Counted from the stretch's first letter, positions 13,753-39,503 are shown. The stretch: DNA of 64,000 bases from an uncultured Thermodesulfobacteriota bacterium (GCA_964594075.1 CAZQKW010000004.1:38171-102170), one strand, 5' to 3'. Numbers and translations are program-made. Notes: a model not told the origin generated them from the sequence alone.

Positions 13753-13809
13753 TACATAAAATAATTCAGCACCGCCTTGACAAACCATCAATCGCCAAAA
13801 GGAAGCCTT

Positions 13810-15261
13810 ATGCACACAGTTCAGGTATCACCTAAGGCCGGCGTCCGCTATCTGCCGCTGTTAATTTGGGTTTTAAGTTTTTCCTTTGCCACGACTTTTA
13901 ACCGCGCGCCGGCGTATAGCGAGACCCTGAGGTATGCGCCGGCCGATTTTAAAGCGGCAATCGCCTGGGTTGCGGAAAAAAATATCCCCGCAGTGGTGCA
14001 CATTGACGTCATTGAGCGGCGCGAGGTTGTGGTGCCGTTTCAGCCGTTTGCGGACGACCCGTTTTTCCGCTACTTTTTTGACGTGCCGCAGATGCCGCGA
14101 AAATATAAACGCGAAATTCAGGGAATGGGCACCGGGATGATCATGGATGCCAGAGGCTACATTCTCACCAATAACCATGTGGTGGGCGGCGCCAGTAAAA
14201 TTCAGGTGCTGCTGGCAAACGGCCGCCGCTATCCGGCAACACTGGTGGGCGCCGATCCTAAAACCGACCTTGCAGTAATAAAAATATCGGCCAAGGAGCC
14301 GCTGCCCGCGGTAACCTTCGGCGATTCGGACAAAACCAAGGTGGGCGAGTGGGTGGTTGCGATTGGCCATCCGCGCGGCCTTGACCATACGGTCACCCAG
14401 GGCATCATCAGCGCCAAGCATCGCCAGGGCATTATGGATCCCAGTAGTTATCAGGACTTTCTGCAGACCGATGCCGCTATTAATCCCGGCAACAGCGGCG
14501 GACCGTTGCTGAACCTGCAGGGGGAAGTGATCGGCGTGAATGCGGCAATCGTTTCTCAGTCAGGAGGCTATGAAGGCATCGGCTTCGCCATACCGAGCAA
14601 CATGGCACAGTATGTGGCGCAGGCGATCATCGGCAGCGGCAAGGTGGAACGCGGGTGGCTGGGCATCAGCGTTCAGGACCTTACGCCGGAGTTGGCAAAA
14701 TCATTTAACGTGGATACCGCCACAGGCGCATTGATTGCGGATGTGGTAAAAAACAGCCCGGCGGATAAAGCCGGTTTGAAAAAGGGCGATGTGGTTACGG
14801 CGTTCAAGGGCGTTGAGGTTGCCGATGCCCGATCGTTGATCAATCGGGCTGCCAGCACGCCGATTGGCGAAACAGTGCCGTTAACCATCGTCCGCGACGG
14901 CAGAACTTCTGAAATTTCCGTTACCATCGGCAGCATGCAGCAGGCCGCCCGAGCGCTCGCGGCATCCCTCAAGGAACGCCTTGGCGCGGAATTCAGGGCC
15001 GTCGGCACGCGGGAAATAAAAAAATACGGGCTCGATTCATCCGCCGGCGTCGTGGTTGAATGGCTTGATCGTGACGGACCGCTGGCAGCAGCAGGATTTG
15101 AAGTTGGCGACATTATTTTTGAGATAAATGGACAGCCTATTGAAAACATTGAAGGTTTTATTACCCAGATACGCGCGCTGCCGCCGCAACAGCCGGTATC
15201 ACTGCTTGCTCTCGACCATAGAACTGGCAATACCGGTTATGTTAAAGTCATGCTTCGGTAG
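13810..15261 (+). CDS. htrA: periplasmic serine endoprotease HtrA/DegP family with two PDZ domains
   Basis: Signal peptide, TNNHVV (His), GNSGGPLLN (Ser) and two PDZ-like segments. The Shine-Dalgarno AGGAAG supports a start at 13810. Confidence 0.9.
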   Translation: MHTVQVSPKAGVRYLPLLIWVLSFSFATTFNRAPAYSETLRYAPADFKAAIAWVAEKNIPAVVHIDVIERREVVVPFQPFADDPFFRYFFDVPQMPRKYKREIQGMGTGMIMDARGYILTNNHVVGGASKIQVLLANGRRYPATLVGADPKTDLAVIKISAKEPLPAVTFGDSDKTKVGEWVVAIGHPRGLDHTVTQGIISAKHRQGIMDPSSYQDFLQTDAAINPGNSGGPLLNLQGEVIGVNAAIVSQSGGYEGIGFAIPSNMAQYVAQAIIGSGKVERGWLGISVQDLTPELAKSFNVDTATGALIADVVKNSPADKAGLKKGDVVTAFKGVEVADARSLINRAASTPIGETVPLTIVRDGRTSEISVTIGSMQQAARALAASLKERLGAEFRAVGTREIKKYGLDSSAGVVVEWLDRDGPLAAAGFEVGDIIFEINGQPIENIEGFITQIRALPPQQPVSLLALDHRTGNTGYVKVMLR

Positions 15262-15304
15262 TGTGCAAATACTCACGATCTGTTGAAAAAATGTCCAGCC
15301 CTGT

Positions 15305-15379
15305 GTCATTCTGAAGGAGCGTGGCGAGAGAAGAATCTATGGTAGAGGTGTTGAGATTCTTCGCGTTGCTCAGAACGAC
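15305..15379. repeat. REP-like 26-bp element, inverted pair
   Basis: GTCATTCTGAAGGAGCGTGGCGAGAGAAGAATCT ... GAGATTCTTCGCGTTGCTCAGAACGAC. Confidence 0.6.
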
Positions 15380-15507
15380 AGGTGCATATGGCCTTATGTT
15401 CTGCGCTGAAATAATCTTTCCCTGTTTTCCTTAAATGATGCCGCGCATCATACAGACGGTGGTTAATTATTGACAATACCTTGCGGCAGGAAAGGAGCAC
15501 CATAATA

Positions 15508-16647
15508 ATGTTTGGCAATCGTGTAACGCTGTTCAAGCTGTTTGGCTTTGCGGTGCGGGTGGACGCAAGCTGGGTAGTGCTTGCCGTTCTGATTACCTGG
15601 TCTCTTGCCAAAGGATGGTTTCCCTATACCCTGCGCGGCCCCTATTCCGCCAATGTGTACTGGTGGATGGGCATCGCCGGTGCCATTGGCCTGTTTGCAT
15701 CCATCATCTTTCATGAACTGTGTCATTCGCTGGTTGCACGCAGATTCGGTCTGCCCATCAGCGGCATCACCCTGTTTATTTTTGGCGGCGTCGCCGAGAT
15801 GGAGGATCAGCCGCAAAACGCCCGCGTAGAATTTTTCATGGCAGCTGCAGGGCCGGCATCAAGCTTTGTGCTGGGCGGCATCCTGTTCGGCATACATTCG
15901 TTTGGATATGCCCAGGGATGGCCGCTCCCAGTAACCGTTGTTTTAAACTATTTGGTTTATCTCAACCTGCTGCTGGCTGCCTTTAATCTGGTGCCCGCCT
16001 TTCCGCTTGATGGCGGGCGCATCTTGCGGGCCGCGCTGTGGGGCTGGAAGGGCAGCCTACGCTGGGCAACCCGCATTGCGTCACAGACCGGCTCCTTGTT
16101 CAGTATCATGCTGATTCTGTGGGGATTCTGGGCGATCCTGACCGGAAATTTTATCGGCGGCTTGTGGCGGGTCATGATCGGTATGTTCCTCAAACGCGCT
16201 GCGGACATGTCCTATCAGCAGGTTGTCGTGAGCCGGGCATTACAGGGCGAACCGGTGAGCAGATTTATGCGAGAGAATCCGGTCACGGTGCCGCCGCAGA
16301 TTACCATTGCGGAACTGATTGAGGACTTTGTGTATCGCTACCATTACAAGATGTTTCCCGTGGTGGACAACGGCAGACTGCTGGGCTGCATTGCCACGCG
16401 GCAATTTAAAAACCTGCCGCGGGAGGAGTGGCGGAGCGCCACCGTTGCGTCCCTTATGGAACACTGTTCCCCGGAGAACAGCATTGAGCCTGATGCAGAC
16501 GCCATACGGGCGCTGGCAAAGATGAATCAGACCGGGGCCTCGCGGCTGATGGTGGTGCGCGGCGAACGTTTGCTCGGCATCATTTCATTGAAAGACCTGC
16601 TGCAGTTTCTGTCTTTAAAAATGGAACTGGAAGGTGCTGACCGATGA
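15508..16647 (+). CDS. site-2 protease family (M50) zinc metalloprotease with tandem CBS domains
   Basis: HELCHSLVA (HExxH), FNLVPAFPLDGGRIL (LDG motif) and two C-terminal CBS-like repeats. Confidence 0.85.
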   Translation: MFGNRVTLFKLFGFAVRVDASWVVLAVLITWSLAKGWFPYTLRGPYSANVYWWMGIAGAIGLFASIIFHELCHSLVARRFGLPISGITLFIFGGVAEMEDQPQNARVEFFMAAAGPASSFVLGGILFGIHSFGYAQGWPLPVTVVLNYLVYLNLLLAAFNLVPAFPLDGGRILRAALWGWKGSLRWATRIASQTGSLFSIMLILWGFWAILTGNFIGGLWRVMIGMFLKRAADMSYQQVVVSRALQGEPVSRFMRENPVTVPPQITIAELIEDFVYRYHYKMFPVVDNGRLLGCIATRQFKNLPREEWRSATVASLMEHCSPENSIEPDADAIRALAKMNQTGASRLMVVRGERLLGIISLKDLLQFLSLKMELEGADR

Positions 16648-18448: not shown

Positions 18449-21310
18449 ATGCGCAAAAATTTTTATCTTCCATCCAGCTTTTTCCCCGGGCGTTCCTGCC
18501 TGTTTAAAATACTCTGCACAATAATTCACGGTATCTTAATAATCAGTTCTACACCGGTTGGCGCATCCTGGGAATGGCTGAATCCCTTGCCTCAGGGGAA
18601 TAATCTCTATGGTGTCTGGGTTAATACGTCAAGCGATGTTTTTGCGGTGGGCGCAGCAGGAACTATTCTGCATTATAACGGCAGCGAATGGACCAGTATG
18701 GCAAGCGGTACGTCGCTATCGTTATATGCGGTCTGGGGGACTTCGGGAGCCCATGTGATAGCCGTGGGGGACAAGGGAACTATCCTGCGCTATAACGGCA
18801 GCTCTTGGAGCAGCATGACCAGCGGCACAACCGCAGCTCTTAATGCCGTCTGGGGCAGCGCGCCTCATAACGTGCTTGCGGTAGGCGCTAATGGCGCCAT
18901 CCTGCGCTACGACGGCAGCTCCTGGAGCGCCATGAACAGCGGGACCAACAAATCGCTGTATGGCGTATGGTGCAGCTCCGCTACCAGCGCATGTGCCGTG
19001 GGAGATGACGGCACTATTCTATATTACAACGGCAGCAAGTGGAACGGCATGAGCAGCGGCACGACAACCTGGCTCAATGCCGTCTGGGGCAGTTCTGACA
19101 GTAACATATTTGCGGTTGGCGCCTCCGGCACGATCCTGCGTTACAACGGCAGCTCCTGGAGCAGCATGACCAGCGGCACTTTTGAGTGGCTCAGCGGCGT
19201 GTGGGGCAAGTCTGACAGCGATGTGTTTGCAGTGGGCGATAACGGAGATATTTTGCATTACGACGGTCTTTCCTGGAGCACCATGGCCAGCCCCTCAAAC
19301 GCCTGGCTAAATGCGGTCAATGGAAGCGCAGACGGCAATGTGTTTACGGTGGGGTTGTCCGGTGAAATCCTCGCCTTTGACGGCAGCACCTGGAGCAGCA
19401 TGACCAGCGGCACGACAACCTGGCTCAATGCCGTCTGGGGCAGTTCGGGCAACGATGTGTTTGCGGTGGGCGATAGCGGCACCATCCTCCACTACGACGG
19501 CAGCTCTTGGAGCAAAATGATCAGCACTACGCTTAAACCTTTATACGCGGTCTGGGGCAGTGCAAACAACAACGTGTTTGCGGTAGGCGATTCAGGAATT
19601 ATCCTGCGCTATAACGGCAGCACCTGGAGCAAAATGACCAGCGGCACCAGCAAATCGCTGTATGGCGTGTGGGGCAGTTCGGGCAACAACATATTCGCAG
19701 TGGGTAATGGCGGCACGATCCTGCGTTATGACGGCAGCACCTGGGTCAGCATGAGCAGCGGCACAACTATCTGGCTCACTGCCGTCTGGGGCAGTTCGGG
19801 CAGCGACGTGTTTGCGGTGGGCGACAGCGGTACCATCCTCCACTATGACGGCAGTGCCTGGAGCAGCATGATCAGCAACTCATTAGCATTGCTGAGTGGT
19901 ATCTGGGGCAGTTCGGCCAGCGACGTGTTCGCAGTGGGCGATAGCGGCGCCATTCTGCACTATGATGGCAGTATCTGGAGCGCCATGGCAAGCGGCACCA
20001 CCGCATGGCTTAAAGCAGCCTGGGGAGTTTCCGGCACTGATGTCTATGCCGTGGGAACCTCGGGCATTATTCTTCGCTTTGACGGCGGCACCTGGGTCAG
20101 CATGTCCTCACCCACAGCAAAGTCCCTTATGGGTATCTGGGGCATGGCTCAAGCAGATCTGTTTGCTGTGGGTGAAGGAGGCACCATTCTTCACACTATA
20201 GACAGCGGCGGCAGTAATACCACCACAGCCCCGTCAACCACTACCAGTATCGCAGATACCACCACCACAGAGCCAACCACGACGACCAGCATAGAATCCG
20301 GCCCATCAACAACAACGACCGAGCCGTCAACCACCTCCAGCAGCGTCGAACCATCCACTACGACAACAACCGCTATTTCCGGGGTGAGCATTGTCAATAT
20401 TACGCAGGACTGGTCAGGGGCAAGTGATGTAACCCTCACCTGGGAAAGCAGCGTGGGGCAGAGCTATTCCATCTTGCTGAAAGATGAATTCAGCGGCTCA
20501 TTCATCGCCGTGGATACGGTTGCCGGAAATCAGGGCACCACCTCCTGGACTGATAATGGCGTTTGGCCTGGCGGAACGCACCCTTCAACCGTTTCGCAGC
20601 GTTACTACAAAGTTTCCGCAAGCGGCATAGAGTCGCACAACACGGTCGGCATCTACCGCATCACCGTGCAGGAAGGCATGAATCTCATATCCCTACCGCT
20701 CATACCGTTCCGATCAGACCTGGTGAATGTGATAGGAAGCCAATTGACGGGCGCGCCAAATGAAGGGGACGCCGACCGCCTCTGGGTATGGAATGGAAAC
20801 AATTACGAATTTGCCTGGCTGGTGGAAGGCGTGGGACCACCCTATGACGGAACGTGGTACACCGGTAATGCCGAAACCGCGGTTACACTGGGCGCCGACC
20901 GCGGCGCATGGGTGCAGGTGCGGCCAGGACACGGGACGCAAACGGTCTATATCGCAGGTGAAGTTGCCGCAGCAGCACGTATTATTCCGCTGGCAACCGG
21001 CATGAATCTGGTGGGAAGCAGTTACCCAGTTGCGGTGCCGCTGGGCGACCAACAGAGCGATGACAGCAATCTGTGGGAAAGCGGGGCAACCGGTGCAGAT
21101 AATGAAGGAGATGCAGACCGGGTGTGGAGCTGGAACGGATCACATTATCAGTTCCACTGGCTGGTGGACCACGTCAATGCAACGCTTAACGGAACGTGGT
21201 ATTCGGGAAACAGCCCCAGCCCGCTCGCTCTTGAACCGGGGAAAGGATACTGGGTGCAAATCCGCGCCAATCATGCGGGTTTTACCTGGACCTATCCCAA
21301 ACCATATTGA
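18449..21310 (+). CDS. large secreted repeat protein: ~14 x 40-aa Asp-box/BNR-like beta-propeller repeats, Thr/Pro-rich linker, FN3-like segment, duplicated C-terminal ~90-aa domain
   Basis: The repeat unit is L.AVWGSS..DVFAVGD.GTILHYDGS.WS.M.SGT; the DGSxWS part resembles the sialidase Asp-box SxDxGxTW. The linker reads TTTAPSTTTSIADTTTTEPTTTT. The C-terminal duplication is NEGDADRxWxWNGxxYxFxWLV...GTWYxGN...WVQxR. Confidence 0.8.
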   Translation: MRKNFYLPSSFFPGRSCLFKILCTIIHGILIISSTPVGASWEWLNPLPQGNNLYGVWVNTSSDVFAVGAAGTILHYNGSEWTSMASGTSLSLYAVWGTSGAHVIAVGDKGTILRYNGSSWSSMTSGTTAALNAVWGSAPHNVLAVGANGAILRYDGSSWSAMNSGTNKSLYGVWCSSATSACAVGDDGTILYYNGSKWNGMSSGTTTWLNAVWGSSDSNIFAVGASGTILRYNGSSWSSMTSGTFEWLSGVWGKSDSDVFAVGDNGDILHYDGLSWSTMASPSNAWLNAVNGSADGNVFTVGLSGEILAFDGSTWSSMTSGTTTWLNAVWGSSGNDVFAVGDSGTILHYDGSSWSKMISTTLKPLYAVWGSANNNVFAVGDSGIILRYNGSTWSKMTSGTSKSLYGVWGSSGNNIFAVGNGGTILRYDGSTWVSMSSGTTIWLTAVWGSSGSDVFAVGDSGTILHYDGSAWSSMISNSLALLSGIWGSSASDVFAVGDSGAILHYDGSIWSAMASGTTAWLKAAWGVSGTDVYAVGTSGIILRFDGGTWVSMSSPTAKSLMGIWGMAQADLFAVGEGGTILHTIDSGGSNTTTAPSTTTSIADTTTTEPTTTTSIESGPSTTTTEPSTTSSSVEPSTTTTTAISGVSIVNITQDWSGASDVTLTWESSVGQSYSILLKDEFSGSFIAVDTVAGNQGTTSWTDNGVWPGGTHPSTVSQRYYKVSASGIESHNTVGIYRITVQEGMNLISLPLIPFRSDLVNVIGSQLTGAPNEGDADRLWVWNGNNYEFAWLVEGVGPPYDGTWYTGNAETAVTLGADRGAWVQVRPGHGTQTVYIAGEVAAAARIIPLATGMNLVGSSYPVAVPLGDQQSDDSNLWESGATGADNEGDADRVWSWNGSHYQFHWLVDHVNATLNGTWYSGNSPSPLALEPGKGYWVQIRANHAGFTWTYPKPY

Positions 21311-21383: not shown

Positions 21384-23132
21384 ATGCAAAAGAGCAACCA
21401 TGTGTCCTCTCATAGTATTTTTGCAGTCCTGATAGCCCTGCTGATTGGTTTGTTGCAACCTGCAGCCGCTGTCGCAGGTGTCATCGGGGTGCGCTCAAGC
21501 ACTGGCATAAAAAATAGTGACGGCAATTATTTGGTGGGCGATGGATTTCTCAATGCAGGACCAGATTGTCTGGTGCAGTGCATTTATGCGGGCGCAGACG
21601 GGGTCATTAATCCGCCGAATCCACTTGACGGCAGCCCGACCGGTGACGACCAGGCGCTGGAGATGGAAGAAATTGCCGGCCGTTATTATACTGTGATTGG
21701 AGAAGGGTATCCGTTTTCACCTGACACCGGAAAATTCGCCGAGGATTTCAGGCATGCTTTAAATGCCGGCAGTAAAATTTATTGCCGCGCATGGAACAGT
21801 TATGATTTTGCATCAGCAACCTGCTATGGGGATTCGCCATTATATCCAATAGCAAATGTGGTGGGGGAATACCATGATTTCGGCACCTGGCTAACCGATA
21901 CCTGCACGCCGTCTTCCAGCACGACAACCGTTGAGTCAACCACCACATCGGTAGAAAACACCACAACGGTTGAATCAACCACCACTACTACGGAACCTAT
22001 TACCACTTCAATAGTTTCAACTTCGACAACTTCTGAAGCGAGCACTACCTCCATTGAGCCGACCACGTCAACGATAGAATTGACCACTACAACGACTGCC
22101 GAAAGCACCACAACGGTTGACCTCGCAACCACAACCGTGGAAATGACAACCAGTTCCGTAGAATCTACCACGACATCAATAATGCCGACAACCACCACGA
22201 CAGAAGAGAACACCACGACCGTGCAGCCGACCATCACGACCAGCACCCCGGAAATTACCACTACCAGTGATCCATCAACCAGCTCTGTGGAGCCTTCTAC
22301 AACTTCTGTGGCATACACGACCACGTTCTTGCCGGTTACTACGACAATACGGCCGCCCACTACCTCAATCGGCCCGATCATTACCACTTCTCTACCTAAG
22401 ACAACAACCTCTATCGGACCGGTTACAACCACAACGTCGTCCCAAAAAACTTCAACTTCTTCCGCGGTTGCGAGCAGCACCACAACGACCGCAGAACCGT
22501 TTACGGTACGTTTCACAGCCGATGTCCGGACTGCGCGCATATTCCGTCCCGTGCAGTTCAGCAGCACCAGCAATGGCATTGTCCGCGAATATCGGTGGCG
22601 CTTTGGCGATGGCGCAGAAAGCAACGAGGCGCATCCGCAGCATATCTATAAAAAGAAAGGCATTTATGATGTAACGTTAACGGTAACCGGAGATGACGGC
22701 TCCACGGCAACAGAAAAAAAAGAAAAGTATATAACCGTCCACGGATTCTGCCCACTTACCACATCGCTAAACAACGAGAGTCACATAGAGGTGTTATATA
22801 AAGTAAGAGACCGGCTGCTCCCCAGCCTGCCCGGAATGATGCTGATATCGCTTTACTATCGCAATGCCGTTGAGCTGACGCGGCTGCTGGAAAACAATCC
22901 GTATCTGCAGAATCGGCTCAGGGAGATGGTAACAAATAACATCGGGATTGCAGAGCAGTGGGTTGCAGGTAAACCTGCAGTGATCTCGGCAGAACAGGTT
23001 GAAGAGATTGTGCAGTTTCTGGAAGCGGTAAGCGCATCGAGCAGCGTGCGGCTGCGCAACGATATTGATATGTTCATAGCGGGGCTGAACGACGGGTATT
23101 TACTCCAGGAATTTTATATTCAGGTGGAGTAG
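21384..23132 (+). CDS. secreted protein: N-terminal domain, ~190-aa Thr-rich imperfect repeat linker (TTTVESTTTS), PKD domain, conserved C-terminal domain shared with downstream gene
   Basis: Signal peptide MQKSNHVSSHSIFAVLIALLIGLLQPAAA. PKD motif WRFGDGAESNEAHPQHIYKKKGIYDVTLTVTGDDG. C-terminal domain LYYRNAVELTRLLENNPYLQNRLREMV. Confidence 0.8.
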   Translation: MQKSNHVSSHSIFAVLIALLIGLLQPAAAVAGVIGVRSSTGIKNSDGNYLVGDGFLNAGPDCLVQCIYAGADGVINPPNPLDGSPTGDDQALEMEEIAGRYYTVIGEGYPFSPDTGKFAEDFRHALNAGSKIYCRAWNSYDFASATCYGDSPLYPIANVVGEYHDFGTWLTDTCTPSSSTTTVESTTTSVENTTTVESTTTTTEPITTSIVSTSTTSEASTTSIEPTTSTIELTTTTTAESTTTVDLATTTVEMTTSSVESTTTSIMPTTTTTEENTTTVQPTITTSTPEITTTSDPSTSSVEPSTTSVAYTTTFLPVTTTIRPPTTSIGPIITTSLPKTTTSIGPVTTTTSSQKTSTSSAVASSTTTTAEPFTVRFTADVRTARIFRPVQFSSTSNGIVREYRWRFGDGAESNEAHPQHIYKKKGIYDVTLTVTGDDGSTATEKKEKYITVHGFCPLTTSLNNESHIEVLYKVRDRLLPSLPGMMLISLYYRNAVELTRLLENNPYLQNRLREMVTNNIGIAEQWVAGKPAVISAEQVEEIVQFLEAVSASSSVRLRNDIDMFIAGLNDGYLLQEFYIQVE

Positions 23133-23154
23133 ATACCGCTCATGAGCGCGCGTT

Positions 23155-23224
23155 AGATTCCTCTGTCGCCACCGCTCCTCAGAATGACACCATGGTGGGA
23201 ATTCTTCGCTTCGTTCAGAATGAG
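23155..23224. repeat. REP-like element, two tandem copies
   Basis: AGATTCctctgtcgccaccgctcCTCAGAATGAC ... GGAATTCTTCGCTTCGTTCAGAATGAG. Confidence 0.55.
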
Positions 23225-23414
23225 ACTTTTTCACCAGCCGGTTAGAAGCACAAATGCCAGAAAAGAAAGGCAGGGTCAATAATGGCCCTGCCTTTATCAT
23301 TTGAATTTCGTTTACCAGTCCATGCCGATTTAGAACCTCTTGCAGCGGGTTGAATAGGCACGAAATGAAATATCAATCACAACTGCCGAAATGCCCCTTC
23401 GCTGTGCATGGGGA

Positions 23415-26021
23415 TCACTGGTGCACCTTTATTCCGAACGTGCTAAAGATTGTCTTATTCTGCATATCGCGTTTGAGCCTGCTGAGGTCCTCCTTGAGGG
23501 CAGGACTTGCCTGATTCTTCAGAGCGTCTATCAACGCAACAGTTTCTTGTATGGTGCCTTTTGATATTACGGTCTTTCGCTTTGTAAGAAAAGCTTCTGC
23601 AACCGGCATAATTTTCCGGATAAGGCTTTGTGCCCTGTTTTTCATTCCCTGATCAGCAGCAAGAATGGCACTCAGTTCAGAAGCATTTTTATAATACAGC
23701 CCGACATAATAACCCCCCAATCCATTCTTTCCGGCCAGACGGTTTCTCACCCCGCGTAATTTTGTTAAATCTTTGCTGTTTTGCCCAAGAACGGTTTCGG
23801 CAGGGCAAATCGAAGGTATCGTCGTAGTTGTCGTGGGGGTTTTTGATAACTCTACCGATGAGCAAAAAACATAATCCAATACGATTCCAGGATCATTGGT
23901 AGTGAGTTCAATAGCGTATGTTCCTGCTCCTAAATACCTATTCATAGTGGCAATAAATGGATACGAATCATCGCATTTGGAGGCAGTCAGTGCTGCTTCA
24001 GCGGGAGTGTTTCCTTCGTACAGATAAAGACATAGCCCTTCCTGTTCAGACGTGGCGTCTAAAACAATGATCGTCGGATTGATTAAGGTAAAATAGAAAC
24101 GATCAGCATAGTGTGCATCTTCATAATGAACACTTGCCCAGTCAGACTTTCTCAGGCCGCCTTCATAAGCGTAGGAAGAACATTCAGCCTGAGTTAATGG
24201 CACTGATGAAATGATACTGTAATCTGTTGCTACTTTGCGGTCCTCGGTTGTCAGCTCAATAGTATAGGTTCCCGCTCCCAAATACTTGTTAATCTTGGCA
24301 ATGTATGGATATGCGTCTTTGCAGTTTGAGGTTATTAATTCGGCATTAGAGGGGTCACTCCCGTTATAAAGATACAAGCACAAGCCATCCTGCTCAGATG
24401 CAGCATCAACAACAAGAACCGTGGGACTGGTTAATGTAATCGTATAGAGGTCGGTATAGTGCGCCTCAGCATAATGGACGCTGAGACAATCAGGTTCCTG
24501 AAGTGTTCCCGGATAGGTATATACCGTGCTTTCAACCTGACTCAATTCCACCGACGAACGAAACGTATATTCCAATGAGATCTTTGGATCGTCGGTGGTG
24601 AGTTCAATAGAGTAGGTCCCCGCGCCTAAAAATTTGTTCACCTTTGCTACAAAAGGATAGGTGTCGTCACAGCTTGAGGCGATGAGCTCCGCACCGGACG
24701 GCTTGCTCCAGTCATACACATAGAGGCAGACACCCTCCTGTTCGGACGTGGCGTCTAAAACAATGTTGGTGGGGGTAGTGAGAGTAAACGTATAGAGGTC
24801 GGTATAGTGCGCATCATCATAATGGACGCTGGGCCAATCGGACTCTTCAAGATTACCCTGATACGTGTAGGAAGAACAACCAACAGGGCTTAACTCAATT
24901 GATGAGCGAAACACATAATCCAATGAGATTTTGGGATCATCGGTGGTAAGTTCAATGGTGTAGGTCCCGGCGCCCAGAAATTTGTTCGTCTTGGCTATAA
25001 ACGGATACGTATCTTTACAATCAGAACCAATAAGCTCTGCACCGGACGGCTTGCTCCAGTCATACATATACAGGCACACGCCATCCTGTTCAGAGGTTGC
25101 ATCTAAAACGACGTTGGTCGGGCTGGTCAAGGTAAAAGTATACAGATCGGTATAGTGTGCATCGGTGTATTGAATACTCAAACAATCAGCATCTTGAAGT
25201 TTTCCCGGGTAGGTGTAGGATGCACATTCAACCTGGCTAAGCGGCACTGACGAGACAAATACATAATCTGGGGAAACCTTTGGATCATCAGTGGTGAGTT
25301 CTATGGAATACGTGCCTGCCCCTAAAAACTTGTTTATCTTGGCAATAAAGGGATAGTTGTCATTACAGTTTGAGGCAATTAATTCTGATCCTGACGGCTT
25401 GCTCCAGTCATACACATACAGGCACAGGCCTTCCTGTTCTGATGCAGCGTCTAAAACAACAACCGTGGGAGTCGTCAAGGTGAAAGTGTAGAGATCGGTA
25501 TAGTGTGCATCGGAGTAGCGGATACCCAGACAATCAGACTCTTCAAGTTTTCCCGGATAAGAATAGGAAGTGCACGCAACCTGAGTCAGTTCTACCGGGG
25601 CGTCAAGAATATACGACAATGACACCTTGCGGTCATTGGTGGTGAGTTCAACAGAATAGGTTCCCGCGCCTAAGGGTATGGTATCTCTCAGTGGTATCCG
25701 TGGCGCAAAAGGATATACATCATCACAGGTATTGTAAATTAACTCAGCACCCGACGGGTTGCTCAGGTCATACAAATACAGGCACATGCCCTCCTGTTCA
25801 GACGTAGCGCTTAAATAAATATTCGCAGGAGCAGTCAGGGTGAATGTAAAAAGATCTGTATAATGCGCGTCAGCGTAGCGGATACTGAGGCAATCAGGCT
25901 CTTCAAGGGTGCCATTTATAGTGTTACTCTGGGCAGGGATAATGAATAAAGATAGGCTCAGAATAATAAATAGAACGGAAAACTGAATGAGTTGTAATAT
26001 TTTTTTCAATGCTTTTTTCAT
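23415..26021 (-). CDS. secreted protein with 7 tandem ~123-aa PPC-like (pre-peptidase C-terminal) domains, Thr-rich linker, shared C-terminal domain
   Basis: Repeat unit DCLSIRYxDAHYTDLYTFTLTxP...DATSEQEGxCLYxYDWSKPSGAELIAS.C.D.YPFIAK.NKFLGAGTYSIELTTDDPK. Linker TPTTTTTIPS. C-terminal domain LYYKNASELSAILAADQGMKNRAQSLI. Has a signal peptide. Confidence 0.8.
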   Translation of the reverse strand: MKKALKKILQLIQFSVLFIILSLSLFIIPAQSNTINGTLEEPDCLSIRYADAHYTDLFTFTLTAPANIYLSATSEQEGMCLYLYDLSNPSGAELIYNTCDDVYPFAPRIPLRDTIPLGAGTYSVELTTNDRKVSLSYILDAPVELTQVACTSYSYPGKLEESDCLGIRYSDAHYTDLYTFTLTTPTVVVLDAASEQEGLCLYVYDWSKPSGSELIASNCNDNYPFIAKINKFLGAGTYSIELTTDDPKVSPDYVFVSSVPLSQVECASYTYPGKLQDADCLSIQYTDAHYTDLYTFTLTSPTNVVLDATSEQDGVCLYMYDWSKPSGAELIGSDCKDTYPFIAKTNKFLGAGTYTIELTTDDPKISLDYVFRSSIELSPVGCSSYTYQGNLEESDWPSVHYDDAHYTDLYTFTLTTPTNIVLDATSEQEGVCLYVYDWSKPSGAELIASSCDDTYPFVAKVNKFLGAGTYSIELTTDDPKISLEYTFRSSVELSQVESTVYTYPGTLQEPDCLSVHYAEAHYTDLYTITLTSPTVLVVDAASEQDGLCLYLYNGSDPSNAELITSNCKDAYPYIAKINKYLGAGTYTIELTTEDRKVATDYSIISSVPLTQAECSSYAYEGGLRKSDWASVHYEDAHYADRFYFTLINPTIIVLDATSEQEGLCLYLYEGNTPAEAALTASKCDDSYPFIATMNRYLGAGTYAIELTTNDPGIVLDYVFCSSVELSKTPTTTTTIPSICPAETVLGQNSKDLTKLRGVRNRLAGKNGLGGYYVGLYYKNASELSAILAADQGMKNRAQSLIRKIMPVAEAFLTKRKTVISKGTIQETVALIDALKNQASPALKEDLSRLKRDMQNKTIFSTFGIKVHQ

Positions 26022-27072: not shown

Positions 27073-27663
27073 TTAAAATATACAGAAAATGGGATATAGG
27101 ACCACCGCAATAAGCGCAATGATAAAGTTTATATTCGCCAGGACTAAACTTATCAGCACAAGGTTGGGCGCCAGCCCGATGACATTCAGCGCCCCAACCG
27201 CAAATAGAAAATACAGGCCCAAGGCAAGGCATGCCGTCGCCACGCTTACCAGATCGCTGCAGATGCTGTCCGATGCCAGCAATTCCAGTTTCTCATCCGT
27301 GCTGATGTCAAGTTTTGCAATGTCAACAATGTTTTTTACGGTTTCCGAAACACGCTGCGGCAGCAAGCCTGAATTGTTTAGAAGATAGTTAAGGTAAAAT
27401 TCATTTTCCGGTTTTTTTATCTCCTCAAAAGCTGCATCAAGATATGAGAGATACTGCTCCTTGATCGCGGCACGCTGGTCTTGTGTCAGAGCCGTTTCGC
27501 CGTTATTAAACGCCTTTAAAGTTTCGTTGGTCTTCTGCACTTCAAGAATTTTGGCGATAGCGTTGCCGACGGGTGTTTGCGGTGTTTTGGCTAATGCCGT
27601 TGTTCCCACTGCCGCAAGCAAAAACATGACTGCTAATAGCAATGAAAAATATTTCTTATTCAT
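27073..27663 (-). CDS. hypothetical exported/membrane protein
   Basis: Signal peptide, strong Shine-Dalgarno GAGGAGG, and a C-terminal pair of TM helices. No family recognised. Confidence 0.45.
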   Translation of the reverse strand: MNKKYFSLLLAVMFLLAAVGTTALAKTPQTPVGNAIAKILEVQKTNETLKAFNNGETALTQDQRAAIKEQYLSYLDAAFEEIKKPENEFYLNYLLNNSGLLPQRVSETVKNIVDIAKLDISTDEKLELLASDSICSDLVSVATACLALGLYFLFAVGALNVIGLAPNLVLISLVLANINFIIALIAVVLYPIFCIF

Positions 27664-27740: not shown

Positions 27741-28226
27741 TTACTGGGTTGCAGAACACCCCAGCACATCGGTAACAAATGCGATAAGATTTTCAAATAC
27801 GCATATCGTATCGCCTTGCTCACATCCCTGAATTGCCTGAATCAAATCAAGAATTGCCTGAAAAATGCAGAGGAAGCCCGAAGGATCGCCCTCCTGTTGC
27901 GCCTTAAGTATCAATGTTCCGTTTTTTGAAATCGTTGCCAGTGTATCTTCACCATTGACTGAAAACAACAGGGTGTTTTTCTCGGCTGCTGTCTCATTGA
28001 TTGCCACAATGAGCGGCGCCCGTCCGGGTACTGAAATGACCATGCCCTTGTAAATGCCATCTGCGCGCTCAAAGACAACCACATCAAAATCTATATGCGC
28101 TCTCTTTAAAACATACTTTATCAGCGCATAATTGTTGATACTCTTGCCTGCAGCCGCTGCATCAGCAAGCGAAATGCCGCAGATGATACACACCATGAGT
28201 CCTATTACTGCAATTCGTTTTTTCAT
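27741..28226 (-). CDS. hypothetical exported protein
   Basis: Signal peptide MKKRIAVIGLMVCIICGISLADA and a strong Shine-Dalgarno AAGGAGGG. Confidence 0.45.
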   Translation of the reverse strand: MKKRIAVIGLMVCIICGISLADAAAAGKSINNYALIKYVLKRAHIDFDVVVFERADGIYKGMVISVPGRAPLIVAINETAAEKNTLLFSVNGEDTLATISKNGTLILKAQQEGDPSGFLCIFQAILDLIQAIQGCEQGDTICVFENLIAFVTDVLGCSATQ

Positions 28227-28430: not shown

Positions 28431-31121
28431 TTAATGTATCCGTATCTTTGAGCCAACTTTCAGGACTGATTCCTCATATAAGCCGTTCAGTTTTCTCAAG
28501 GTATTAACATCAACATTATATTTTCTGGATAGCGACATCAGGGTATCGCCCTGCGCAACACTATGATATTGAGGCGCCCGCGCCTTCGGCGCTGCTGCTT
28601 TAGCAATTTGTTTAATGTTCTCTTTTTTTGCCGGCGCGGGTTTTCTTACTATCTTGGGGGCCGGCGGCTTTACCGTCTTCTTCGTATCCGGCTCTACTGC
28701 CACGGGCTTTTCACCTTCCTGTTTCTCAGTCGGTTTAACCTCTTGAGCCGGTGTTTTTTCCGCTGTAACATTTTTTTCTGGCGCAGATGGGGCGATTTCC
28801 GTTGCTGCTGTCTCTTTTTTCTCTGTTTCAGATTCTGTTCCGGTTGCTTCTTTTTTCTGCTCAGTTTCTGGCTGGGGGGGAGTGTCCATCACCGGCGCTA
28901 TCTGCGCAGTCGGTTCCGGCGCACCTTCTGCCTTTGTTTCCGGCGCTGGCGCAGAAAGTATATTTGACGAAGAGCCGGTTTCGGCAACGGGCTCGCTGCC
29001 TGCGGGCGCATCAGCCTGAAGCGTATTTGCAGCAGCCTTTAATTCCTCTCCAGATGGCGCGTTCGCACCTGCCTGCCCAGCCTCTGGCAACGGCGCCGGT
29101 TTCTGCATTGCCGCAGGTCCCTCAGACACTTGGTTTGTAACTTCCGGCGCACCTGTTTCGCTCTTCGCTGTTTCCTGCTTCTCTTCTGGTTTGGCTGCAG
29201 CAGCACCAGGTTCGGTCAGCGTTTCTGCTGCGGGCTGCACAGCAGGAACAGCATCCTGAGGTGCAGGAGCTGCCTTTGCTGCCGTCGCCTGTTCTCCTGG
29301 TTGAGCCGGTTCAGCGGGTTTATCAGCGGGAGAGCTTTTGGATTCTTGCTGCACAGAACCCTGCGCCGGCTGCGCCTGTTCGGTTATAGGCGCCGGTTGC
29401 GGCGCGTCACTATGAGCCGGTGCTGCTTCACCGGCTGCACTGGGCGTATTAGCGTCTGCCGCCTGCACGGCAGGGGAAGCAGTTTCCGGAGGCTTTTCTG
29501 CTGTTTCTTGCTTTATCACAGCCTCGCCGGGAACTTCCTGCGCTGGTGCGGGCGCTGCCGCGTGCGTATTCTCCGGTGCGGGTGCTTCGGTTTTAACTGC
29601 GGCGACCAATTCGCTGCCGGTTGCGATTTTATCCGCTGCCGGGGAAGGTGCCGGCGGCCCTTCTGCTGCTGGTTGAACTGGAGGCGGTGAAACCGGAATC
29701 GGCGGCTCTTGTACCGCTTGCGCCGGAGTAGCGTCCGCTGCAGATGGTTTGGTCTCCGCCTTTTCTGCCGCCGGGGCGGCAGTTGCAATCCGGGCAGGTT
29801 GCTGGTTCTTTTCCGTACTGACGGCCACCGGTGCATGAGCGCGCGGTTGCACATCAGACTTTGATTTCAGAACAGGTTTTTTTAGGGGTTCAGTCTTTTT
29901 AGCGGTTACGGCGGACGCAACTTTTTTTACTGGAGGAGAAACTTCAGGTTTAAGAGTTACCCGCGTTTTTTCCTGCATCGCTGGTTTCTCTGTCTTATCC
30001 TCAGCAATACTTTGCACTTTAACCTTGGGCGGTTCCTTGATAACCGTCACCGGCTCCGGTGTCTGCTGTTTTGGCGGCGGCAATTCCTCAAGGTTAAAAT
30101 CTTCGGCTTTGACGATCTCAGCCTGCGGCTTATCGGTCAAAAAGTCTAATTTTGAAGACCCGCTGGCACCGGTTCTGGATTTTTTTAAGTTTTCGTTTGC
30201 TATAGTGTAAAAAGAGGGCTTCAGTTTTATTGCTTTTTCAAACGCCTGGTTCGCCCTCTCATAATCGCCTTTCATCAACAGCACACATCCCAGGTTATTA
30301 TAGGCAGTTGCCTCGTCGCTCACTTTCTTAAAAGTCTCCAGCGCTTCCTGATACCTGCCGGACAGTCCCAACGCAAGTCCCATGTTATTGTAAACCTTGT
30401 TCGGCACCGATCGGAAACCCATCGCCGTGTCAAACGCTTTTATGGCGCTGTCATAATTGCCGGAAAATAAATATGACAGCCCGAGATTGTTATACAGCAG
30501 CGCATTGTCCTGCTTGAGTGCGATTGCCTTCTGATAGGCGGCTATTGCCCGCGGGTAGTCCTTGCGCTTATCGTAAATAATCCCCAGACAGTTATGGCTC
30601 TTCCACAGGTTCTGATTCAGCTCCAGGGCTTTAATGAAATACCGCTCTGCCTCAGCAATCTTTTGCTGCTGAAAGAGCGCCAGCCCCATGCCTTCGTGTG
30701 CCAGGGCGTTTTGCGGCTCTTTTCTCATGACCTCCTGAAACTCCAGCATCGCATCGCTGAACATTTTGTTTAACAAAAACAGCAGGCCAATTTTATATCT
30801 GATTCGCAGGTTTTCCGGTTCAAGCCGCACTGATTTATCATACTGGAGAAACGCCTGTTGCAGGTTGCCGCTGTTGAAATAGTCGTCCCCTGACCGCTCA
30901 TACTCGGCAGCCGTCATTTCAGGGGGTTCTTTGAGGGGAACATCTCGTTGTGCGGGATTGGTGGCTTGGCGGGGCAAATTTTTTACCGGATATTTGTTGG
31001 CAAAGGGGTCTTTCAGGGTGTCCTTCCCGGCAATGGTGCTATTCTGCGAACAGCCGGATAAAAAAAAGATGCTAACCGCAAGAGCTAAGAAAGTTAGCAA
31101 GACCCCCTTTGATAGCACCAT
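28431..31121 (-). CDS. TPR-repeat lipoprotein with ~550-aa Pro/Ala/Glu-rich low-complexity region and C-terminal LysM domain (TadD-like / FimV-like)
   Basis: Lipobox FLSGC. N-terminal TPR repeats (AxxYYxxG, LGxxYxxxxxYxxA). C-terminal LysM YHSVAQGDTLMSLSRKYNVDVNTLRKLNG. Last gene of the tad locus. Confidence 0.8.
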   Translation of the reverse strand: MVLSKGVLLTFLALAVSIFFLSGCSQNSTIAGKDTLKDPFANKYPVKNLPRQATNPAQRDVPLKEPPEMTAAEYERSGDDYFNSGNLQQAFLQYDKSVRLEPENLRIRYKIGLLFLLNKMFSDAMLEFQEVMRKEPQNALAHEGMGLALFQQQKIAEAERYFIKALELNQNLWKSHNCLGIIYDKRKDYPRAIAAYQKAIALKQDNALLYNNLGLSYLFSGNYDSAIKAFDTAMGFRSVPNKVYNNMGLALGLSGRYQEALETFKKVSDEATAYNNLGCVLLMKGDYERANQAFEKAIKLKPSFYTIANENLKKSRTGASGSSKLDFLTDKPQAEIVKAEDFNLEELPPPKQQTPEPVTVIKEPPKVKVQSIAEDKTEKPAMQEKTRVTLKPEVSPPVKKVASAVTAKKTEPLKKPVLKSKSDVQPRAHAPVAVSTEKNQQPARIATAAPAAEKAETKPSAADATPAQAVQEPPIPVSPPPVQPAAEGPPAPSPAADKIATGSELVAAVKTEAPAPENTHAAAPAPAQEVPGEAVIKQETAEKPPETASPAVQAADANTPSAAGEAAPAHSDAPQPAPITEQAQPAQGSVQQESKSSPADKPAEPAQPGEQATAAKAAPAPQDAVPAVQPAAETLTEPGAAAAKPEEKQETAKSETGAPEVTNQVSEGPAAMQKPAPLPEAGQAGANAPSGEELKAAANTLQADAPAGSEPVAETGSSSNILSAPAPETKAEGAPEPTAQIAPVMDTPPQPETEQKKEATGTESETEKKETAATEIAPSAPEKNVTAEKTPAQEVKPTEKQEGEKPVAVEPDTKKTVKPPAPKIVRKPAPAKKENIKQIAKAAAPKARAPQYHSVAQGDTLMSLSRKYNVDVNTLRKLNGLYEESVLKVGSKIRIH

Positions 31122-31158
31122 ATAATGTTCCTGAAGTTGTCAAGCGTTTTGCGAAAAA

Positions 31159-32106
31159 TTATGGTTTTATAAGTGTATGAAATATGCGAATGGCTGCCGG
31201 CCCCATTAATATAACAAAGAGCGCAGGGAAAATGCAAAAAATAAGCGGCACCATTAACTTGACCGGCAGTTTTGCAGCAATTTCTTCAGCTTTCATATAC
31301 CTCTTAGTCCTGAAGGTGTCAGAATAAGTGCGCAACGCCTGCGCTATGCTGGTGCCGAATTTATCAGTCTGTATGAGCAAGGTGGCAAAATTTTTAATGT
31401 CCTCTATGTCAATACGCAGACCTAAATTGCGTAGCGCATCCGGCCGCGATTTTCCCGCTCGCAATTCTAAATTATACAGTTTAAGCTCATCGCTCAACGG
31501 CGGACTCGTCAATTTTATTTCATCCGCTACCCGGTTCATCGCCGCATCCAGCCCCATGCCCGCTTCAACGCAGACCACCAAAATATCCAGCGCATCAGGT
31601 ATTCCCCGTGATATTTTTTCTTTTCGGATGTTGGTTTTTATCTGCAACAAAAGATCAGGCAAATAAAATCCGGCAACCGCAAGAACGACGCAGATTATCA
31701 TCGTAATATTTGGTTGAACAATTTTAAAAACAGTTACCCGAAGAAGAAAAAATACTACCGGCAATAATAAGGAAAGGAAAAACTTTGCCCCCCAATAAAC
31801 GGAAATCAAATCTTCATTATTTAATCCTGCCCGTAAAAAATTAAGTTTTATTCGCGAATAATCTTCAGACCTTTCATTAACAAATAATTTACCCAGCGGT
31901 TTCAGCCAGGCCGCAAATGAAAGGAAGGACATATCCTTTCTGCTTCGCACACTCTCTTTTAAATCTTCAAACGTTCCTACATATTCCTCAAATTGTACTT
32001 TTTTAATTAACTTTTTCTTAGCCTGAACAAAATTTAAATACTGCAGGGTGCCAAAAATAATTAAAAAGATGAAAATAAATGTTATGGCTGAAATAATAAG
32101 CAGCAT
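31159..32106 (-). CDS. tadC: Flp pilus assembly inner-membrane protein TadC (T2SS F-domain)
   Basis: GspF-like domain with GMGLDAAMNRVADE. Confidence 0.85.
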   Translation of the reverse strand: MLLIISAITFIFIFLIIFGTLQYLNFVQAKKKLIKKVQFEEYVGTFEDLKESVRSRKDMSFLSFAAWLKPLGKLFVNERSEDYSRIKLNFLRAGLNNEDLISVYWGAKFFLSLLLPVVFFLLRVTVFKIVQPNITMIICVVLAVAGFYLPDLLLQIKTNIRKEKISRGIPDALDILVVCVEAGMGLDAAMNRVADEIKLTSPPLSDELKLYNLELRAGKSRPDALRNLGLRIDIEDIKNFATLLIQTDKFGTSIAQALRTYSDTFRTKRYMKAEEIAAKLPVKLMVPLIFCIFPALFVILMGPAAIRIFHTLIKP

Positions 32107-32127
32107 GACCGTATTGTTTTAACTTGT

Positions 32128-33105
32128 TTAAATTCTTATTGAAACCATGCGGTTCATTATATAAATACCCACCGCTATTAACACCAGTGCCCCGACGATC
32201 ATTTTTTTGCCGATGGGATCTTGTATGAGAGAATTTACATAATCAGGGTTTAAGATCCGAATGACGAAAAAGATCAAAAATGGAAGAACCGTTAGTATAA
32301 TAGCAGATATTTTTCCTTCCGCAGATAAAACCCGCAGTTTGTCATTAAATTTAAATCTTTCGCGAATAATATGCGCTATATTGTCAATAATCTCGGCAAG
32401 ATTCCCGCCGGTCTCACGCTGAAGAATGACCGAAACTACAAAAAATTTAACTTCAGCGCAGTCAACACGATAAGCAAGATTTCTCAATGCATCAGCAACC
32501 GGGACGCCAAAATTGATTTCATCCAGCACTTGGGCAAATTCGGGGCCAAGCGGTTCGCCAAAATTATCAACCACCACCTTCATGCCGCTGGTGAACGCAT
32601 GCCCCGCACGCAGCGATCGGGCAATCAGCTCAAGCGCCTCCGGCAATTGTTTTTCAAACTCCTGCAATCGGTTTCTTTTTTTAAGGGAAAGATACAAAAA
32701 AGGAATTATGGCAAACAAAAAAGCTGTAATATAGGATATTCCCAATACTCTGACCGGCAAAATGACACTGCCCATTAAAAAGCCAACCTGCATTAACAAC
32801 AACGAGAGCAAGATAAACACACCGACTGGATACTGCGCATTCGCTTGCTGGATTAATCTATCAAGCCGTTCAATACCGGGAATTTTAAAAAAAATTTTAT
32901 TTAAGAACGGAACATTGCTAAGAAGTCTTTTGCGTAAGATATCCGGCGTATCAATGGAATACTGGGAGAAAGAGAATTTTTTCAGGCGATTCTGAATTTG
33001 TCTGCTCTTAAGCCCACTAATAGACCTGATGCCATATAACACCAGCTCAATAAAAATGATGGTTATTATTGCAAAGAAAATAATTAATCTAAACGGAAGA
33101 TCCAT
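32128..33105 (-). CDS. tadB: Flp pilus assembly inner-membrane protein TadB (T2SS F-domain)
   Basis: GspF-like domain with LRAGHAFTSGMKVV...GVPVADALRNL. Confidence 0.85.
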   Translation of the reverse strand: MDLPFRLIIFFAIITIIFIELVLYGIRSISGLKSRQIQNRLKKFSFSQYSIDTPDILRKRLLSNVPFLNKIFFKIPGIERLDRLIQQANAQYPVGVFILLSLLLMQVGFLMGSVILPVRVLGISYITAFLFAIIPFLYLSLKKRNRLQEFEKQLPEALELIARSLRAGHAFTSGMKVVVDNFGEPLGPEFAQVLDEINFGVPVADALRNLAYRVDCAEVKFFVVSVILQRETGGNLAEIIDNIAHIIRERFKFNDKLRVLSAEGKISAIILTVLPFLIFFVIRILNPDYVNSLIQDPIGKKMIVGALVLIAVGIYIMNRMVSIRI

Positions 33106-33131
33106 AAATTTCCTTAATATGAGACGACACC

Positions 33132-34472
33132 CTATACTTCCAGCACCGTAGTCGGCTCAAACATTTCCCTGGGCAGCGTTATGCCGAATGCCTTGAATTT
33201 CTCTATGAATTTTGGCCGCACCCCGTGAAATACGAATTTTCCGCGCACCCTGCCTTCCGAATCAATGGTCGTCCGCTGGAATGAATAAATTTCCTGCATG
33301 GTTATAATGTCGCCCTCCATGCCGGTGATTTCCTGAAAGCTAATCAGTTTTCGGGTCCCGTCCTGCAAACGGGCAATGTGGATAATAACATTGAGCGCTG
33401 AACTGATGTAGCGGCGCAGGTGGTCAATGGGAATGTCAACATTCGCCATGGCAACCATGGATTCAATGCGCATTAAGGCGTCCCGCGGCGAATTGGCGTG
33501 AATGGTGGTCAACGAGCCTTCGTGGCCGGTGTTCATTGCCTGCAGCATATCAAATGCTTCCCTGCCTCTGACCTCGCCGACAATAATGCGATCGGGCCGC
33601 ATGCGCAGGCTGTTGCGCACCAGATCCCGCTGAGTCACTTCACCCTTGCCTTCAATATTAGGCGGCCTGGTTTCCAGCCGCACCACGTGTTCCTGTTTTA
33701 ATTGCAGTTCTGATGCATCTTCTATGGTGATAATCCGCTCGTCATGGGGAATAAAACGCGATAGAACATTCAGCGTGGTGGTCTTGCCACTGCCGGTGCC
33801 ACCGGAAATCACAATATTCAATTTTGCTTTGACAATGGCCTTAAGTATCTCGCCAATTTCCGGCGTCAAAGTCTGAAGATTAATAAGGTCTTCAAGTTCC
33901 AGCGGGTCCCGGGCAAAGCGCCTGATGGACAAAATGGGACCGTCAATCGCCAGCGGCGGTATGATGGCATTAACGCGTGAACCGTCCGGCAAGCGCGCGT
34001 CAACCATCGGCGATGATTCATCAATACGGCGCCCCACCTGAGAGACAATTTTATCAATAATCCTCATTAAATGTGCGTCGTCTTTAAACCGTGCGTCGGT
34101 GCTTTCCAGCTTGCCAAACCGCTCCACATAGATGTTTTTGTAGGTATTGACCAGAATGTCTGATACCGTCGGGTCCTGCATGAACGGCTCCAGAGGACCA
34201 TACCCCATCACTTCGTCCTGAATTTCAGTAACCAGCAATTCACGCTCAAGTGAATTGAGGGGATAGCTGCTGCGGTCTTCATTAAGGATGCGTTCTACCA
34301 GCGCCCGAATTTGAGATTTGAGCATATCCGCTTCAAGAGTCTCGATTACCGTGAGGTCTATGATATCCAACAGACGGTCATGTATCTGAGTCTTAAGCTC
34401 AAAATACTCCTCAGGTATTTCTCGGCGCGCTGCACGCTTGTCTCTCGCTGCTACCTGTGCGTATGGTTGCAT
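33132..34472 (-). CDS. cpaF: Tad pilus ATPase CpaF/TadA (T2SS/T4SS E-family)
   Basis: Walker [10 protein letters not shown] and [16 protein letters not shown]. Start set at 34472 (MQPYAQ) on the strength of an AGGAG Shine-Dalgarno. Confidence 0.9.
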
Positions 34473-34504
34473 AAAAACTCCTATGCTATTATGTATGTAT
34501 AATG

Positions 34505-35677: not shown

Positions 35678-35696
35678 GGTATCTCTGCTTAATGAA

Positions 35697-36950: not shown

Positions 36951-36986
36951 TTACATCACCTCGTTTCTAAACTTGAACGGTTTTTA

Positions 36987-37529
36987 TTATTCTTCCGGCT
37001 GACATTCTGTTCTCATTTGTGTTACCGCAGAAAGTGTTATGGGCCCTGACAAAGAACCGCCAAAGAATGCTCCCAGAATATTTGGCAGCAGAAGAAAATT
37101 ATAATCAAATGTCACGGTCACTCTTCTATAATACTGACCATCTGCAGTTGGCACCATACCCGTAGTGGTAACCGACGGAGTTTTGGAGCCGGAAAAGTTA
37201 ATTAAATAATTTGCGCAGTAGCTGCGCACTACTGTTTCGACATCCGATGGGGAAATCATACGACAAGTACCCACTCCCGCTACACCATTAGGGGGATGGG
37301 TATATAGTATCGCTGTTCTGGCGCCTTCACGGCTGGCATTGGTAATGACCGCTTTGTTATAAAACAGTATCCCAAACTCAATAATGCCGAAAATAAAAAG
37401 CAACAACAGCGGCAGCACAATCGCAAACTCAACCGCTGATGCGCCCTTCTGGCATTTTAAACCTGTCTTATCTTTCACGTCATACCTCACGTATTCAAAA
37501 TTATTGTTATTGCTGGCCATAGATGCCAA
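36987..37529 (-). CDS. TadE/TadF-like pseudopilin
   Basis: QKGASAVEFAIVLPLLLLFIFGIIEFG TadE motif. Confidence 0.75.
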   Translation of the reverse strand: MASMASNNNNFEYVRYDVKDKTGLKCQKGASAVEFAIVLPLLLLFIFGIIEFGILFYNKAVITNASREGARTAILYTHPPNGVAGVGTCRMISPSDVETVVRSYCANYLINFSGSKTPSVTTTGMVPTADGQYYRRVTVTFDYNFLLLPNILGAFFGGSLSGPITLSAVTQMRTECQPEE

Positions 37530-39486: not shown

Positions 39487-39503
39487 GCAAACCCCTCCTT
39501 ATT

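Follow-up and report, generated by a model that had tools for sequence, protein, structure and literature searches.

Bacterial proteins can be addressed to the cell surface by C-terminal tags and, to our knowledge, each such tag whose action has become understood has led to a sorting enzyme or an anchor not known before. The C-terminal domain of the type IX secretion system (T9SS) is a β-sandwich, and SLH domains are repeats of ~55 residues with a TRAE motif. The MYXO-, JDVT-, Synerg- and CGP-CTERM signals are short tripartite tags, consisting of a Cys motif, a transmembrane helix and an Arg cluster, which are processed by CPBP-type intramembrane proteases (10.1101/2023.06.07.544157; PMC11980579). 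The invariant cysteine of MYXO-CTERM is needed both for cleavage and for surface display that depends on the type II secretion system (PMC11980579; 10.1101/2023.06.07.544157). The CFI-box-CTERM domain is represented by a curated NCBIfam model (NF041770) of 69 positions with a cutoff of 40 bits; we found no paper naming CFI-box, CFIATAA or NF041770, and no published function. Here, we describe an extended domain, related to CFI-box-CTERM, at the C-termini of two neighboring genes, A and B, in a stretch of 64,000 nucleotides (hereafter, the window) from an uncultured Thermodesulfobacteriota bacterium (GCA_964594075.1 CAZQKW010000004.1:38171-102170).

The C-terminal domain shared by A and B

Gene A (21384..23132, plus strand) encodes a protein of 582 residues with a signal peptide, an unannotated N-terminal domain, a Thr/Ser-rich region, a PKD domain and the long C-terminal domain (CTD; residues 453–582, 22740..23129, plus strand). 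Gene B (23415..26021, minus strand) encodes 868 residues, with a signal peptide, six PPC-like repeats, a Thr linker and its own copy of the long CTD (residues 737–868, 23418..23813, minus strand). Each CTD was assigned from its BLASTP alignment with the other copy, AlphaFold2, NF041770 and clustering. Both open reading frames are present and convergent, as an earlier note on this DNA had claimed, with 282 bp between them, and the proteins end in ...FYIQVE (A) and ...GIKVHQ (B).

The last 130 residues of A and the last 132 of B align end to end over 129 residues, with 27% identity, 50% positives and two single-residue gaps (BLASTP, E = 2e-16). The Smith-Waterman score of this pair is 130, compared to 26.8 ± 4.6 (maximum 56) for 2000 shuffles (z = 22). 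When all stop-to-stop six-frame translations of the window were searched with phmmer, A and B were the only copies of the domain (E ~3e-11), and the next match had E > 0.1. Thus, the similarity of the two C-termini, first proposed in the earlier note, is real and specific. The shared domain is longer than the ~100 residues given there, with an actual length of ~127–130 residues.

AlphaFold2 models of the two CTDs, calculated from shallow alignments of 8–9 sequences, have a mean predicted local distance difference test (pLDDT) score of 90.7 and a predicted template modeling (pTM) score of 0.83 for A, and values of 93.4 and 0.85, respectively, for B. Both contain the same elements in the same order: a short helix following the first cysteine, four helices, a short strand, three helices and, at the end, a second strand paired with the first one. 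The domain is, therefore, predicted to be almost wholly α-helical, with eight helices and a two-stranded mini-sheet, in agreement with the helical appearance noted earlier. In these models, helices 1–5 correspond to the ~70-residue core of CFI-box-CTERM, and ~60 further residues are specific to the long form. The absence of a transmembrane segment was also borne out (maximum 19-residue Kyte-Doolittle mean of 0.92 for A and 0.61 for B), as was that of LPXTG, PEP-CTERM and T9SS features, for which no Pfam or NCBIfam model matched A, B or 45 family members. Structural comparison gave a reproducible but weak match to the TIPE/TNFAIP8-like lipid-binding helical fold (PDB 8gyn) and to Gip1 (5z39), which we treat as a lead and not as evidence. 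Sequence-profile matches in the PDB were confined to de novo designed helical bundles (4D2 and THR2) and were judged to be compositional.

Neither protein reaches the cutoff of NF041770, with scores of 20.9 bits for full-length A, 23.9 bits for its domain alone and 14.0 bits for B. The match covers the first half of the domain (profile positions ~11–67 of 69) and recurs in the family, since 44 of 45 diverse members match the model at E ≤ 0.1 (best E = 2e-12), supporting homology of the core. Long-form domains usually score 20–30 bits, below the cutoff. Two short tails of ~70 residues, in the related loci L001 (GCA_900175145.1; 46.8 bits) and L005 (42.0 bits), score above it, and a hidden Markov model of the long form recovers both of these tails at ~1e-14. 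The short tail of L001, located at the end of an NHL-PKD protein, reads ...CAASYLLGKENPRLAVLRNFRDTVL...ELYYKNGEQIIQIL....

The A/B domain resembles CFI-box-CTERM in its C-terminal location on exported multidomain proteins, in a conserved cysteine at its start, and in LRxFRD...G...YY...E motifs that align to the profile. In contrast, profile positions 1–10 (the “CFI box”) are unaligned, and A has CPL and B has CPA at this point, a C-P-hydrophobic motif. The domain also spans 127–130 residues, compared to ~69, with the ~60 extra residues (three helices and the strand pair) lying beyond the model. Thus, it neither opens with Cys-Phe-Ile, if “CFI” is read from the name of the model, nor has a length of ~69 residues. 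Pfam contains no model for the domain (A, B and 45 family members), and PADLOC gave no match. These comparisons show that the A/B domain is a divergent, extended relative of CFI-box-CTERM that combines the common core with an extra module of ~60 residues. The earlier suggestion of a possibly uncharacterised system holds insofar as A and B fall below the NF041770 cutoff and the extra ~60 residues are in no library model; it does not hold for the N-terminal half, which is homologous to a curated family. The earlier note had counted a match of the domain to a known sorting signal family against its proposal, and, through this N-terminal half, this objection applies in part. The domain is, thus, not wholly unknown, but an unannotated long variant of a curated, uncharacterised C-terminal domain family.

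Distribution of the family and the boundary cysteine

HMMER was run over 1.84 billion cluster representatives with a profile built from A and B together with one close homologue. At E ≤ 1e-3, 1147 representatives matched, so that the family, which is carried by sediment bacteria, comprises a minimum of 1147 clusters (50% identity); 331 matched at E ≤ 1e-10. When either domain was used alone as the query, word-indexed protein searches yielded near-identical sequences or none, and the same type of search with a 45-sequence profile returned 8 proteins. Detailed analysis covered 152 sequences, or smaller subsets where stated. The full span of ~127 residues is conserved in these sequences, with the consensus C-P-x4-L-x8-LRxxRDxxL-x4-G-x5-LYYxxAxE-x3-IL-xxNPxL ... 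ASPxLxxD ... IxxGxLLxxxGIxV. A C-terminal position throughout the family had been suggested as a check, and in 148 of the 152 no more than 10 residues separate the end of the domain from the C-terminus. The exceptions include P0115 (689 residues), which, like P0151 (242 residues), carries two copies, one of them internal. P0151 has the short form twice, in each case after a linker that is acidic and rich in Asp instead of Thr.

Among 94 full-length members, the passengers include PKD (39 proteins), CarboxypepD_reg-like (6), NHL, PPC and SGL (5 each), Lcl_C and Laminin_G_3 (LamG) (3 each) and BACON (2) domains, together with other β-propellers and single cases of Peptidase_C25, FG-GAP and PQQ propellers. 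This set is diverse and typical of exported or surface proteins. A clear signal-peptide h-region is present in at least 62 of the same 94 proteins, and many of the others come from gene calls that are plainly truncated. Taken together, the family-wide comparisons show the domain to be a widespread, portable C-terminal module on diverse passengers with predicted Sec export, in uncultured diderms of the Deltaproteobacteria/Desulfobacterota type.

Clustering separated two main subfamilies, A-like (50 of 124 sequences) and B-like (28 of 124). The domain usually follows directly after a PKD domain in A-like members, and after a poly-Thr run and Gly-Gly in B-like members. As the copy in A is A-like and that in B is B-like, the window holds one member of each. 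A poly-Thr linker had been reported before the domain in both proteins. B does contain one (TPTTTTT, within KTPTTTTTIPS; 23814..23846, minus strand, from the translation), which is short and directly precedes the CTD, whereas in A a PKD domain intervenes and abuts the CTD (residues 388–452, 22545..22739, plus strand; Pfam PF18911 and PF00801). The PKD_4 match covers residues 390–452 with E = 1.3e-15 and 57.6 bits, compared to a gathering threshold of 27. The suggestion that the domain would always follow a Thr-rich linker fails in the wider family, since TTT is found within 30 residues upstream in only 49 of 131 representatives and most of the others have a PKD domain directly before the CTD. 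Thus, the Thr linker is common, but not obligatory.

The cysteine at the boundary between passenger and domain (residue 456 of A, codon 22749..22751, plus strand; residue 739 of B, codon 23805..23807, minus strand) is present in all 133 members whose match reaches the start of the domain. The next residue is proline in 78% of them, and the one after that is hydrophobic (A, F, L, I, V or M) in ~97%. The domain has no second cysteine in 86 of the 133. In 66 complete proteins, the number of cysteines in the mature passenger is even in 46 and zero in 8; in P0030, P0055 and P0116, the boundary cysteine is the sole cysteine. Hence, there is no conserved internal disulfide for the boundary cysteine, which, judging from these counts, is usually unpaired within the protein. 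Its invariance without such a disulfide, in proteins predicted to be exported, suggests that the thiol is functional. It might take part in an intermolecular disulfide, be a site of covalent attachment or modification, determine processing or act as a ligand. No position upstream of the cysteine is conserved among the 133 members. A lipobox-type motif was rejected for lack of conservation at positions −3 to −1, and intein/Hint-like autoprocessing at the cysteine because the predicted fold is all-α.

Candidate functions of the domain

We propose, with a probability of about one half, that the domain is a cysteine-dependent module for anchoring to, or sorting within, the envelope, next to which it would lie as the foot of surface proteins that stand on a stalk. 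Once exported by Sec, the passenger (PKD, PPC repeats and others) would be held off the cell by a Thr-rich or PKD stalk, and the folded helical domain at its base would either fasten the protein to the cell envelope or direct it to the surface. The tether would be made without a transmembrane helix, through the invariant cysteine at the junction, and could be an intermolecular disulfide, a thioether or a lipid. The conserved polar cluster (LRxxRD, YY and E) is probably a binding or recognition site. The machinery or ligand would be encoded elsewhere in the genome and could serve many client proteins. The earlier note had suggested that unrelated passengers share a module for sorting, docking or anchoring, which fits the position, passengers, signal peptides and lack of a transmembrane helix across the family; the mechanism outlined here is what we infer from these features.

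Several observations weigh against this proposal. The transmembrane helix and the Arg-rich tail of all signals of the sortase type that have experimental support are both absent from the domain. A conserved partner gene, which the earlier note had suggested looking for, does not adjoin the family members in 20 other loci: in an all-against-all BLAST comparison of the open reading frames of these loci and of the window region, no gene family recurs beside the domain-bearing genes outside close relatives. The sole exception is a flavodoxin-like gene located upstream in three related lineages (L003, L004 and L018). These loci were retrieved with a B-like alignment (A4) only and are, thus, biased towards the B-like subfamily and short contigs. 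As no partner is conserved in non-syntenic loci, a dedicated machinery is hypothetical. One family member, P0006 (283 residues), combines a chemoreceptor-like coiled-coil N-terminus with an A-like domain whose start lies past the position of the cysteine. Unless this protein is a chimera produced by assembly or gene calling, it would be an instance of cytoplasmic use, and the domain would not be strictly an export tag. Finally, the A and B proteins could simply be periplasmic or released.

If the weak TIPE/Gip1 likeness of the predicted fold were taken at face value, the domain could instead be a lipid-binding anchor, a barrel whose hydrophobic cavity holds a membrane lipid, a lipopolysaccharide acyl chain or its own Cys-linked lipid and, thereby, parks the protein non-covalently at the outer membrane. 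We consider such an anchor unlikely. The strict C-terminal position, the many passengers and the invariant junction cysteine, for which MYXO-CTERM provides a precedent (PMC11980579; 10.1101/2023.06.07.544157), would also suit a secretion or sorting signal that is removed by an outer-membrane export and processing machinery cleaving at or near the cysteine, as in myxosortase-type or T9SS processing. However, known signals of the Cys type are short and include a transmembrane helix and an Arg cluster, while the present domain is a soluble fold of 130 residues with neither. Furthermore, no residue upstream of the cysteine is conserved as a cleavage site, and the scanned neighbors (the 64-kb window and the short loci) include no gene for a CPBP protease, exosortase or rhombosortase, so that we give removal of the domain a similarly low likelihood.

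The foot of these proteins could also serve in oligomerisation, with the helical domains associating and the junction cysteine forming an inter-chain disulfide, which would yield covalent dimers or multimers, or a component of a surface layer or matrix. This seems quite improbable, as the confident prediction is of a closed, monomeric fold, and simple bundling would leave the invariance of the R/D/YY/E polar cluster unexplained. The C-P-hydrophobic motif (Cys 100%, Pro 78% and a hydrophobic residue ~97%) resembles the Cys-Pro heme-regulatory motif, but a cofactor- or ligand-binding domain with a thiolate ligand of this type, with a role in sensing or redox chemistry instead of anchoring, is the least credible alternative, given that core CFI-box relatives often have no proline (for example, CAASY in L001), that the domain has no second conserved ligand (His or Cys) and that the sequence matches in the PDB, to the de novo protein 4D2, reflect composition.

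Returning to the envelope-anchoring proposal, a bolder version is conceivable, although rather doubtful. The long CFI-box-like domain might be an undescribed, transmembrane-free route of display on diderms, in which dozens of different passengers are attached, via the single invariant junction cysteine, to the outer membrane or surface layer by a soluble barrel of helices that may be TIPE-like and bind lipid. Its machinery or ligand would then be unrelated to sortases, exosortases, rhombosortases, myxosortases and T9SS. Independently of its function, the family is large, has no Pfam entry and scores too low for the one curated model related to it; as a result, its members are named “hypothetical” or after their passenger in the source databases. 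A definition of the long form would better annotate the surface proteomes of sediment Desulfobacterota, and the long form is a concrete and cheap experimental target for the function of CFI-box-type domains.

Genomic setting and comparison with known systems

The passenger of B consists of six PPC-like repeats in tandem, each of ~116 residues (23847..25919, minus strand), rather than the seven counted previously. The Pfam match has E = 1.2e-21 and 77.7 bits, compared to a gathering threshold of 25.9, with five stretches scored, and six occurrences each of AHY[TA]D and LGAGTY are spaced 116 residues apart. The Thr/Ser-rich, low-complexity region of A (residues 163–378, ~215 residues; 21870..22517, plus strand), identified by its composition of ~40% Thr and 16% Ser, is presumed to be an extended stalk or linker. 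Long, Val-rich antisense open reading frames arise from such Thr-rich coding DNA, both in A (21824..22624 of the window, minus strand) and in locus L002 (9274..9990). The window corresponds to the JGI metagenome contig Ga0394875_0000172, in which the gene call cuts A to 193 residues (“PKD repeat protein”) and calls an antisense open reading frame of 238 residues inside the Thr-rich DNA; similar truncation is apparent for many family members in the databases. The gap between A and B contains an inverted repeat with 13-nucleotide arms and a 4-nucleotide loop, flanked by an A-run and a T-run (23266..23295, no strand assigned), which was identified by a repeat search and from the sequence. It is plausibly a bidirectional terminator; a consensus terminator scan made no call at this repeat.

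Two of the loci, L001 and L006, are syntenic with the window, and both keep an orthologue of A, which in L001 has 557 residues and the same layout. L006 also keeps an orthologue of B, whose CTD is 93% identical, again with a convergent, CTD-bearing neighbor. The place of B in L001 is taken by the NHL-PKD protein with the short tail of 46.8 bits (552 residues; 3499..5157 of that locus, minus strand). The short and long forms, thus, coexist in one lineage and seem to be interchangeable at a locus. Domain-bearing genes also cluster with one another: they are convergent in the window and in L006, in tandem in L009, and present as one long and one short form in L001.

A complete Tad/Flp pilus operon (28431..41053, minus strand) adjoins the surface-protein cluster, an adjacency kept only in L001 and L006. 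It encodes a TPR-LysM protein, two TadB/C-like proteins, a CpaF ATPase, a ParA-like TadZ, TadG/TadE, the secretin RcpA/CpaC, RcpC/CpaB and a prepilin peptidase. The presence of a secretin gene indicates that the organism is a diderm, with an outer membrane. Between an FMN reductase gene and the Tad operon lie genes for two hypothetical exported proteins of 196 residues, with a hydrophobic C-terminal region (27073..27663, minus strand), and 161 residues (27741..28226, minus strand); neither has a match in Pfam, NCBIfam or PADLOC. The FMN reductase, both of these proteins and the Tad genes were considered as partners of the domain and rejected because they are syntenic only in the close relatives L001 and L006.

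Upstream of A, a protein of 953 residues with features of export (18449..21310, plus strand) contains more than 12 repeats of the type WGSSxxDVFAVGxxGTILxYxGSxW, a Thr-rich linker and a different C-terminal region of ~300 residues, for which no match was found in Pfam or NCBIfam. In other organisms (P0014, P0023, L011 and L016), WGSSxxDVFAVG-type repeats are fused directly to the long CFI-box-like domain. Approximately 2–5 kb upstream of the surface-protein cluster (13777..16647, plus strand) are genes for a DegP/HtrA-type protease with two PDZ domains and an M50 site-2-type intramembrane metalloprotease with CBS domains. They are kept only in an identical contig and, therefore, are not evidence for a processing partner. 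The region ~40000..46000 has a G+C content of 0.40–0.43, compared to ~0.50 elsewhere in the window, and may be acquired DNA. It contains large open reading frames without a Pfam match (42365..43855 and 43904..45559), and a gene for an RCC1-repeat protein is located at 45714..47105.

Compared with established surface-targeting systems, the long domain shares with the Cys-type CTERM tags an invariant cysteine at its start, a C-terminal position, a wide range of passengers and an occurrence on surface proteins of diderms. It differs in being a soluble helical fold of 130 residues with neither a transmembrane helix nor an Arg cluster, and an NCBIfam scan of A and B gave no match to the tripartite Cys-type CTERM models. 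With SLH domains and the T9SS C-terminal domain, which place varied passengers on the cell surface, it has in common the design of a portable terminal module, although no sequence or fold match of the domain to either was found in Pfam, NCBIfam or the PDB. The design, thus, departs from the combination of motif, transmembrane helix and Arg tail, and relies on a folded, soluble domain with one invariant and usually unpaired cysteine.

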